DNA of 64,000 bases from Candidatus Nomurabacteria bacterium RIFCSPHIGHO2_12_FULL_42_19. GTDB lineage: Bacteria > Patescibacteriota > Minisyncoccia > Phycocordibacterales > UBA9973. The DNA lies in the NCBI GenBank assembly GCA_001786955.1, contig MFUM01000004.1:4457-68456 (forward strand). The letters run 5' to 3'. Both the position numbers and the translations under genes were made by a program. Below, in pieces: positions 8,399 through 9,214 of the stretch (its first letter is position 1; the number at the start of each line of letters is the position of its first letter). The notes beneath the pieces are model-generated. The model did no database searches and was not told the origin of the DNA. It saw only the letters and a list, made by a program, of their open reading frames with translations.

Positions 8399-9214
8399 AT
8401 GTCTATTCAAATCACCACAGAGCAAATAAAAGGGCTCCGCGATATGACTGGCATTTCGGTAATGCAATGTAAGCGCGCCTTGGAAGAAGCCGAAGGCGAT
8501 ATAAAAAAAGCGCTGGCTATCTTAAAAAAAACAAGCTCGGATATTGCGCTTAAAAAAGTTAATCGTGAAGTTAAAGACGGAAAAGTTTGCATTAAAACAG
8601 GAAACCTGCCTCCTGCCCGCGCAGGCGGGGCGCAGGCAGGTAAAAAAGCAGTCTTGGTGTCTTTGCGCTGTGAGACCGATTTTGTCGCCAGAAATGAAGA
8701 CTTCGCTAAGCTGCTGGAAAATCTTGCGGAAAAAGCGATAAAAGTCGGAGTAGAAGAAATGAAAAAGGAGGCCAAAGACATGATTGATGCTATAATCCAG
8801 AAAACCGGAGAAAATATCCAGCTTGGCGACACATATGAAGTAAATGGAGGTATTTTGGGAAATTACGTGCATAATAATAAGACTGGAGTTATCGTAAGCT
8901 TGACAGGGGGTGATGCGGAACTTGCAAAAGATATAGCCATGCACATAACTGCCATGAAGCCGGAATATATTTCGCAAGACGAAATAACAGAAGATGCCAG
9001 AAAAATAATGAAAGAAATTTTCGAAAAAGAAATAGCCAGTATGGACAAGCCTGCGGAAATAAAAGAGAAAATGCTTCTCGGAAAAATGGCGGCCTATTTC
9101 AAAGAAAAAACCCTGCTTGACCAGGCATTCATAAAAAACGGGGAAGAAACAGTGGGCCAGCTCCTGGAAAAAGCCAAGGCAAAAATAAAAGAAGTAAAAG
9201 CTTGCTTAATATAA
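8399..9214 (+). CDS. tsf: Elongation factor Ts
   Basis: N-terminal UBA-like ITTEQIKGLRDMTGISVMQCKRALEEAEGDIKKAL and the TDFVARNEDF core are present. It carries an in-frame GC-rich palindrome insertion (NLPPARAGGAQAGKK). Confidence 0.92.
   Translation: MSIQITTEQIKGLRDMTGISVMQCKRALEEAEGDIKKALAILKKTSSDIALKKVNREVKDGKVCIKTGNLPPARAGGAQAGKKAVLVSLRCETDFVARNEDFAKLLENLAEKAIKVGVEEMKKEAKDMIDAIIQKTGENIQLGDTYEVNGGILGNYVHNNKTGVIVSLTGGDAELAKDIAMHITAMKPEYISQDEITEDARKIMKEIFEKEIASMDKPAEIKEKMLLGKMAAYFKEKTLLDQAFIKNGEETVGQLLEKAKAKIKEVKACLI
8605..8640. repeat. GC-rich palindromic element, family B (cctgcc..tgcccgcgcaggcgggg..ggcagg), in frame inside tsf
   Basis: Nested inverted repeats. Related copies at 35109-35131, 39984-40020 and 51163-51189. 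Confidence 0.6.

Follow-up and report, generated by a model that had tools for sequence, protein, structure and literature searches.

Short hairpin repeats that lie in frame in housekeeping genes and are translated with them are known as intragenic repetitive extragenic palindromic sequences (REPs) and as Rickettsia palindromic elements (RPEs), both of which are polymorphic between relatives and can occur as dimers or groups (PMC3733652; PMC10969869). As first reported, RPEs measure about 150 bp (PMC10969869). REPs are imperfect palindromes of 20–40 bp that bear GTAG or CGTC as a terminal tag; those of the GTAG type have been linked to the REP-associated tyrosine transposases (RAYTs). REPs are mostly extragenic, and in P. 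fluorescens 14 of 1,067 16-mers overlap genes (PMC3116915). The GC clusters of yeast mitochondria, among them the 42-bp GC42, occur in organelle genomes with a putative AG target duplication; they are reported to pass from one species to another through recombination at conserved flanks, and their mechanism is described as unresolved (PMC4478555). Here we analyzed a stretch of 64,000 nt (hereafter the window) from Candidatus Nomurabacteria bacterium RIFCSPHIGHO2_12_FULL_42_19 (contig MFUM01000004.1, positions 4,457 to 68,456), in which tsf, the gene of elongation factor Ts (EF-Ts), harbors a GC-rich palindrome of 36 nt. Judged from sequence comparison, these 36 bases probably represent a very small dispersed GC hairpin repeat that was inserted in frame and is translated; they comprise two 18-nt units and would be non-autonomous mobile DNA moved in trans.

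The product of the host gene matches Pfam EF_TS (PF00889) with an E-value of 6e-50, as well as UBA_8 / EF-Ts_N at its N-terminus. It contains the CETDFV motif (TDFV), aligns with the EF-Ts of E. coli (1EFU_B, residues 4-263, E-value = 1e-36) and shows 100% identity with the EF-Ts annotated in Ca. Nomurabacteria GW2011_GWC2_41_8 and in sister metagenome-assembled genomes (MAGs). A first-pass annotation of the window had placed a GC palindrome of a recurring family, labeled family B, at 8605-8640 inside this gene, and both the coordinates and the sequence, cctgcctcctgcccgcgcaggcggggcgcaggcagg, proved exact. Its remark on composition was likewise correct, since the GC content of the 36-mer is 0.83, compared with 0.40 elsewhere in tsf and 0.41 over the whole window, a level attained by 5 of the approximately 64,000 segments of 36 nt in the stretch. 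The insert adds 12 residues to EF-Ts, which reads N-LPPARAGGAQAG-K at this point. The suggested placement between the UBA-like domain and the core has to be corrected, however. The insert is predicted to lengthen the turn of the first beta-hairpin within the EF-Ts core and to form a disordered surface loop there, because the AlphaFold model puts residues 70-81 between two strands (60-69 and 82-91), with a predicted local distance difference test score (pLDDT) below 50 at residues 74-78. In the alignment with 1EFU_B it stands opposite a gap between KTKI and DGNYGIILEV.

The 36-mer can be parsed in a unique way, as CCTGCCT + CCTGCCCGCGCAGGCGGG + GCGCAGGCAGG. When rejoined, the outer pieces (8605-8611 and 8630-8640) give CCTGCCTGCGCAGGCAGG, the exact 18-nt core, which is a perfect palindrome consisting of CCTGCCTGC and its own reverse complement with no spacer. 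The two substitutions that separate the inner piece from this core, T7C and A16G, are each found singly in stand-alone 18-mers at other loci (L204 and L011). Because the inner piece and the rejoined outer pieces both match the 18-mer, the tsf insert is read as a compound of two 18-nt units, nested or fused. The complete 36-mer forms an imperfect palindrome whose outer stem measures 7 bp and whose inner stem measures 5 bp, corresponding to a two-tier hairpin with a predicted RNA fold of -27.6 kcal/mol (z = -3.2 versus shuffles).

The strongest single argument that new sites receive the unit as a discrete block comes from thrS, the gene of threonyl-tRNA synthetase (ThrRS). Among 120 ThrRS relatives, the peptide LPAQAG is confined to the window's own species cluster. 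The nearest relative (P0122, 89% amino acid identity; locus L232, 83% nucleotide identity) has an empty site, GAATCCCG|CGATGC, where the window reads GAATCCCG, then CCTGCCTGCGCAGGCAGG, then CGACGC, so that exactly 18 nt were gained, at a G|C step and with no target-site duplication. This comparison indicates that the thrS copy was gained after the split from the L232 relative. The core had been expected to recur at 35109 and at 39984; it is exact in thrS at 35112-35129, and the second region holds only a degenerate relative (39983-40021). The insertion of a recurring GC-palindrome family in tsf is thus supported by an exact core in thrS and by its recent gain there.

Filled and empty states were also compared at the EF-Ts turn, in an alignment of the window protein with 120 database relatives (69-100% identity). 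A two-residue turn without insert (…IKTDG-KKAVL…) is present in 89 of the 121 sequences, an 'LP…' insert in 22 and an unrelated four-residue extension in 10. The core was not found in the distant EF-Ts loci examined (L124-L200). Conservation of the insert across the EF-Ts of unrelated bacteria, which would contradict a family inserted in tsf, is therefore not seen: E. coli has a gap, most close orthologs are empty and the distant loci lack the core. A profile scan of metagenomes with universal EF-Ts patterns (KALAILKK, CETDFV..) gave three close relatives among the matches listed. At the DNA level, empty sites read ACA GGA AAC|AAA AAA (L122) or GGA AAT|AAA (L202), and the window reads ACA GGA AA(C CTG … GCA GG)T AAA AAA with the insert in parentheses, again with no target duplication. 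The codons that flank the insert, AAC before and AAA after, are different, so there is no matching take-off/landing pair.

In a neighbor-joining tree built without the insert columns, filled EF-Ts occupy at least five separate places: a twelve-member clade that is wholly filled, the window sequence alone among empty relatives, P0011 alone, and two groups in which filled and empty members are mixed. The versions of 18, 21, and 36 nt are patchily distributed over these places. Concerning the DNA, the comparison covers ten filled orthologs. L206 has the exact core, and L204 and L203 differ from it by one mismatch each; L205, L235, and L238 bear 21-nt versions in which the 7-bp arms are kept around a different, CCGG-type center. 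The insert of L236 is 18 nt long and differs from the core at four positions, and that of L237 has 36 nt and retains 24 of the 36 bases, with 10 of the 12 differences being G-to-A or C-to-T; these two look like copies drifting to the AT-rich background. Inside the wholly filled clade the peptide varies (LPAQAG, LPAGKAG, LPASEAG, LPGQTG), and all coding variants measure 18, 21, or 36 nt and are open in frame. Within the window's species cluster the insert is carried by every full-length member, across several MAGs and samples.

Locus L201, which encodes P0011, carries the same 36-mer as the window with 36 of 36 bases identical, although the two genes share 71% DNA and 74% protein identity outside the insert. 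Of the identical residues, 49% are written with the same codon in both genes, a figure that falls to 34% at distances of up to 30 codons from the insert; the tsf flanks of this pair show no visible recombination tract. P0011 ranks 105th of 120 among the relatives of the window protein, and every closer relative of either one is empty. A shared copy of this kind is hard to explain because the copies of L237 and L236 appear to drift, and simple vertical descent does not account for it.

An exact-match scan of the core in one genome per species returned at least 120 loci. Among the matches listed, and classified by record title, 71 belong to the candidate phyla radiation (CPR, Patescibacteria), 15 to Bacteroidota and 10 to low-GC 'uncultured Gammaproteobacteria'; the rest are mixed and include high-GC genomes, in which chance matches are expected. 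The CPR groups represented are WWE3, Microgenomates, Saccharibacteria, Paceibacteria, Kaiser-, Uhr-, Woese-, Gottesman-, Dojka-, and Magasanikbacteria, and others. By our own composition-based estimate, chance accounts for approximately one match in the whole collection for DNA of up to 45% GC. The CPR matches originate from many independent studies, and the matches listed include cultured isolates (Litoribacter ruber and Rosettibacter primus). A 599-kb Paceibacterota contig has at least three exact-core loci, and the window has one exact copy per 64 kb. A scan of viral contigs gave 25 matches, mostly in contigs of 58-67% GC, which is consistent with chance and reveals no phage link. The 18-mer was found neither in the literature searched nor, by keyword, in a description of CPR genomes, a coverage that is incomplete and leaves room for an earlier description.

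The use of a GC-rich palindrome in AT-rich genomes and the flanks of the copies point to a conserved DNA unit. Among the matches listed, 97 copies are located in loci of at most 50% GC, and 60 of them (~60%) lie within open reading frames (ORFs) of 120 aa or more. All frames of the unit are free of stop codons, and the 60 coding copies are read as LPAQAG (43), PACAGR (12), or CLRRQ (5), compared with 20:20:20 for uniform usage (own chi-square ~41). The low-GC copies favor a purine at -1 and a pyrimidine at +1 (79% purine at -1, both sides pooled), and they show no other conserved flank, including no GTAG/CGTC tag and no AG duplication. In the LPAQAG frame the +1 base is C or T in 35 of the 43 copies, although as the third position of Gly it could be any base, so that the preference belongs to the DNA element or its target and not to the protein. 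We therefore rejected the LPAQAG peptide as the selected unit: the pyrimidine at the free Gly position and the 36/36 identity with L201 both argue that what is conserved is DNA. Arrangements with flipped halves (GCAGGCAGG|CCTGCCTGC) also occur.

Some copies stand in other contexts. In Sphingobacteriales bin43 (L012, L033, L071, L077, L083, L102) and Saprospiraceae MAG-185 (L004, L043) the core lies between genes, at the tip of longer repeats, for instance AAAGCGTTAACGAYRGTAGCGG + core, a REP-like use of the same hairpin. A WOR-3 MAG (L070:7385-7423) harbors a 39-nt relative, CCTGCCTGCCGCGCCGCTTCACTTTGCGGCGCAGGCAGG, with the core arms around a different inner hairpin, and the exact core is present in the same 8-kb locus. 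Finally, in five species (L027:1735, L037:3540, L042:372, L038:6792, L110:728) the exact core is established at G10|T11 of a tRNA-Gln-like 5' fragment or weak paralog, each of which adjoins an intact tRNA-Gln gene. The core was also considered as an intron or excised segment of tRNA-Gln; this was dropped, as the interrupted copy is a fragment or weak paralog beside the intact gene. No Rfam family covers the hairpin (the window and the tRNA-Gln loci were searched and gave tRNAs only).

Apart from the copies in tsf and thrS, the window has two degenerate ones (Table 1), and all four are within genes, with flanks such as aaaC..Gtaa and ccgC..Gcga. Shuffled windows gave no core match at up to three mismatches. 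GC-rich hairpins of all kinds number 27 in the window, compared with 1-5 in block shuffles. At the degenerate block of pheT, which encodes the beta subunit of phenylalanyl-tRNA synthetase (PheRS-beta, PheT), most relatives have a short 'PES-K-PT', and a patchy subset is extended, with …AGQAE or AGKPE.

Two of the remaining hairpins concern the same question of in-frame insertion. The RNase R gene contains a 78-nt in-frame block read LPSLNKEGAGGGNSKDHPASGTPPKKGGE, with three GC hairpins (CCCCTCC..GGAGGGG, GGGGTGG..CCACCCC, and CCCCTCC..GGAGGGG), which is missing from L232, where the stretch outside the block is ~73% identical; it represents a second hairpin family inserting in frame. In pheT, the hairpin CTCCCCCTGCTAAGGGGGAG accounts for 11 additional residues, SPDGHSPLAGG, at a turn near residue 333 of the window protein (proteins P0253, P0323, P0317, P0357). 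At this turn 94 of 121 sequences are empty, and the filled ones differ by lineage: NLPAQAGG or GLSAQAGD (family B), TPSPDGHSPLAGGE (the window and three others), or LSPNPSP…RRGE types. The repeated presence of unrelated hairpins at the same turns argues that tolerance, i.e., selection, accounts for at least part of the recurrence at these sites.

Table 1. Positions of the tsf insert, its relatives, and other features of the window.
Feature	Position	Strand	Reading or basis
tsf, elongation factor Ts, 271 aa, host gene	8399..9214	+	ORF list, Pfam, homology
36-nt compound GC palindrome in tsf	8605..8640	+	in-frame LPPARAGGAQAG, residues 70-81; A at 8604, T at 8641
Inner 18-nt unit CCTGCCCGCGCAGGCGGG	8612..8629	+	core with T7C and A16G (2 mismatches)
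Exact core CCTGCCTGCGCAGGCAGG in thrS (33403..35208)	35112..35129	+	read LPAQAG; young copy
Degenerate family-B-like block in pheT (38413..40269)	39983..40021	-	read PPAPKAPAGQAE; 12-mer GCGCAGGCGGGG common with tsf copy
Degenerate family-B copy in prepilin peptidase gene (49239..50063)	49558..49586	-	starts CCTGCCTGCGC; read SASAGWAQAG
Hairpin block in RNase R gene (24954..27167)	25783..25875	+	78-nt in-frame block
Hairpin in pheT	39240..39280	-	11-aa insert
GC hairpin CCTCCCCCTTATTAAGGGGGAGG in SMC-like gene (29101..31374)	30496..30518	-	in-frame TSPLIRGRMGGG
Perfect 20-nt GC palindrome CCGATGGCGGCCGCCATCGG in mreB (5233..6279)	5843..5862	-	read PMAAAIG
MazF/PemK-like ORF between dnaG and rpoC	16130..16540		
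Fic/DOC and helix-turn-helix (HTH) pair downstream of thrS	35517..36252		
tRNA gene	9659..9731	+	Rfam
tRNA gene	44452..44536	+	Rfam
tRNA gene	62477..62563	-	Rfam

Other features of the window are listed for comparison. The region of the SMC-like gene that contains a GC hairpin is ~114 nt longer than in L232. The palindrome of mreB is probably native and not an insertion, as we take PMAAAIG to be a conserved MreB motif. In some same-species assemblies pheT is present as two shorter ORFs of 256 and 321 aa (P0373 and P0375, on one 67.6-kb contig), which may be due to a frameshift or to faulty assembly, possibly where a GC hairpin lies. Downstream of thrS, L232 has a ParE-like module in the place of the Fic/DOC and HTH pair, which suggests toxin-antitoxin turnover between relatives. 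The three tRNA genes are the sole Rfam matches in the window at the gathering threshold.

Concerning the mechanism, the unit would move or be copied as hairpin-forming DNA by an enzyme encoded elsewhere, most likely a structure-specific single-strand transposase or recombinase. Among the known enzymes, the best fit is provided by HUH transposases (IS200/IS605/RAYT type), because no target duplication is left. Selection would then retain only in-frame copies in solvent-exposed turns, and the copies in EF-Ts (by the structural model) and in ThrRS and PheT (by alignment) are located at turns between strands. Translation and selection are supported by the frame bias, by the lengths of the coding variants (18, 21, or 36 nt) and by the predicted low-pLDDT loop between two strands. 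The 12 residues of EF-Ts would be translated as a floppy extension of the beta-hairpin, probably without disturbing function, and would be tolerated with no need for a benefit. In this sense, the 36-nt insert behaves like extremely small mobile DNA that proteins tolerate.

Several observations weigh against this interpretation. No transposase, RAYT, or other mobilizing gene was detected by Pfam among the window ORFs up to ~47.5 kb, where all genes are housekeeping or toxin-antitoxin genes, and no mobilizing gene or transposase was found between the paired cores of L033 and L094. Full-length members of the species cluster display neither presence/absence polymorphism nor an excision footprint, and translation of the insert is deduced from open reading frames. 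The nested parse places the inner unit at a T|G step, contrary to the purine|pyrimidine rule. Finally, the same tsf codon is filled in at least five places of the tree, and the identical compound 36-mer is present in two lineages that are not sisters; such site recurrence is poorly explained by random transposition followed by selection and suggests a preferred site, transfer of nothing but the insert, or precise loss on repeated occasions.

According to a bolder but unlikely alternative, the 18-bp unit would be an insertion cassette complete in itself and present in several phyla, possibly smaller than any mobile DNA described so far. It would be written by an unrecognized mechanism able to refill one and the same codon in lineages that have diverged, and the identical compound 36-mer shared by two non-sister EF-Ts genes would be the mark of this mechanism. 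Candidates are a recombinase specific for hairpins that behaves in a homing-like way, or the templated addition of CCTGCCTGC at each of the two ends of a break; either would preserve a single exact sequence in Patescibacteria and elsewhere.

It is rather improbable that the insert spread between lineages by DNA uptake and recombination, with the palindrome acting as an uptake signal like those of competent bacteria and filled alleles being taken up preferentially and replacing empty ones. Genes for competence and type IV pili are common in CPR genomes, and a prepilin peptidase gene is present in the window. Such a process would also suit the identical 36-mer at the same codon of non-sister lineages, the patchiness of filled and empty states within clades, and the single exact sequence across many CPR classes. 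However, it leaves new copies at new sites, like the thrS gain, unexplained, and the codons flanking the insert in the window and L201 are no more alike than the rest of the gene (34% versus 49%), with no tract visible. The density is also low (at least three exact cores in the 599-kb contig and one in the window), whereas known uptake sequences occur approximately once per kb.

We give still less credit to a repair scar, in which the same templated 9 nt, CCTGCCTGC, would be added to both 3' ends of a (hairpin-capped) double-strand break. Joining would then produce a palindrome with no loop, and a new break inside the scar would produce nested forms. The lack of a spacer in the core, the lack of a target duplication, the nested architecture of the tsf copy, and the flipped-half arrangements all agree with this scheme. 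On the other side, neither the enzyme nor the template was found, and to our knowledge none has been described for such an addition; longer looped members with other centers exist (the 21-mers and the 39-mer of L070), and the purine|pyrimidine preference at the flanks is not predicted by it.

Selection for the feature itself is very improbable, whether a Gly/Ala/Pro-rich loop improves EF-Ts or an mRNA hairpin regulates the translation or mRNA stability of tsf. The hairpin is stable, the insert has reached fixation among the full-length members of the species cluster and the 36-mer is perfectly conserved between two lineages, as would be expected of a selected feature. Nevertheless, the same DNA unit is found in unrelated proteins and in intergenic DNA, most EF-Ts orthologs have no insert, and the insert varies freely in the wholly filled clade, with L237 and L236 departing from the family sequence largely by GC-to-AT changes. 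A sequencing or assembly artifact, e.g., an adaptor or a chimeric hairpin, has the odd composition and nothing else in its favor and was rejected as practically negligible, given that the insert is in frame in many MAGs of unrelated projects and assemblers, that cultured isolates and diverged in-frame variants carry it, and that same-species assemblies are identical.

If insertion of a dispersed hairpin repeat is the correct interpretation, essential and conserved CPR proteins (EF-Ts, ThrRS, PheRS-beta, RNase R) would have been repeatedly colonized at beta-turns by GC hairpins of 18-80 nt. This would provide a concrete source, at the DNA level, for many lineage-specific loop insertions in CPR proteins, as well as a convenient marker of recent events in unculturable genomes, and it would warn annotators and those who build alignments that such loops are not homologous protein features. 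The occurrence of one 18-bp perfect palindrome in many classes implies a conserved trans-acting activity, so far unnamed, and possibly a new way of moving or writing DNA. Recurrence at the same site makes targeting and tolerance testable against each other with existing groundwater time-series metagenomes and metaproteomes. Of specialist interest are the fixed 18-bp sequence across much of Patescibacteria, the repeated occupation of the same codon, and the identical compound copy in two non-sister EF-Ts genes.

Comparison with the known systems separates the insert from most of them. Unlike REPs, the unit is an untagged, perfect palindrome of 18 bp with no GTAG or CGTC, and it is not mainly extragenic, as 60 of the 97 low-GC copies among the matches listed and all four window copies are in genes. 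No RAYT was seen among the window genes up to ~47.5 kb or between the paired cores of L033 and L094. In common with RPEs, it is inserted in frame and gives a conserved peptide (LPAQAG), but its size (18-36 nt) and its hosts, which are not Rickettsia, place it outside that group. One sequence spans many Patescibacteria classes and some other phyla, which distinguishes it from both. A miniature inverted-repeat transposable element (MITE) has terminal inverted repeats and a target-site duplication, whereas the unit is a single inverted repeat and the thrS and tsf sites have no duplication. The GC clusters of yeast mitochondria and the byp elements resemble it as GC-rich hairpins in an AT-rich genome whose units are merged and shuffled; however, no AG or other duplication is seen here and the hosts are bacterial chromosomes, so that it does not belong among the yeast clusters. 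As for byp elements, these are skipped by the ribosome and their length need not be a multiple of three, whereas the coding copies of our family have 18, 21, or 36 nt, are open in frame and have unmatched flanking codons, which argues against bypass.

Uptake signal sequences (USS), DNA uptake sequences (DUS), and HIP1-type palindromes are likewise fixed, short, and over-represented motifs found in coding regions with frame preferences. They arise by point substitution and are far denser, whereas the core arrives as an insertion relative to orthologs. Nearest in size and nesting are reportedly the small dispersed repeats (SDRs) of heterocyst-forming cyanobacteria, which are said to form families of palindrome-containing repeats of ~20-30 nt with signs of mobility, nesting, copies in genes, and no encoded transposase; they are unrelated in sequence and in host phylum. 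The closest likeness remains with intragenic REPs and RPEs, which are also palindromic repeats placed in frame inside housekeeping genes and read as extra peptide. In our best reading, the tsf insert is thus a tiny palindromic repeat of the intragenic REP, RPE, or SDR kind.

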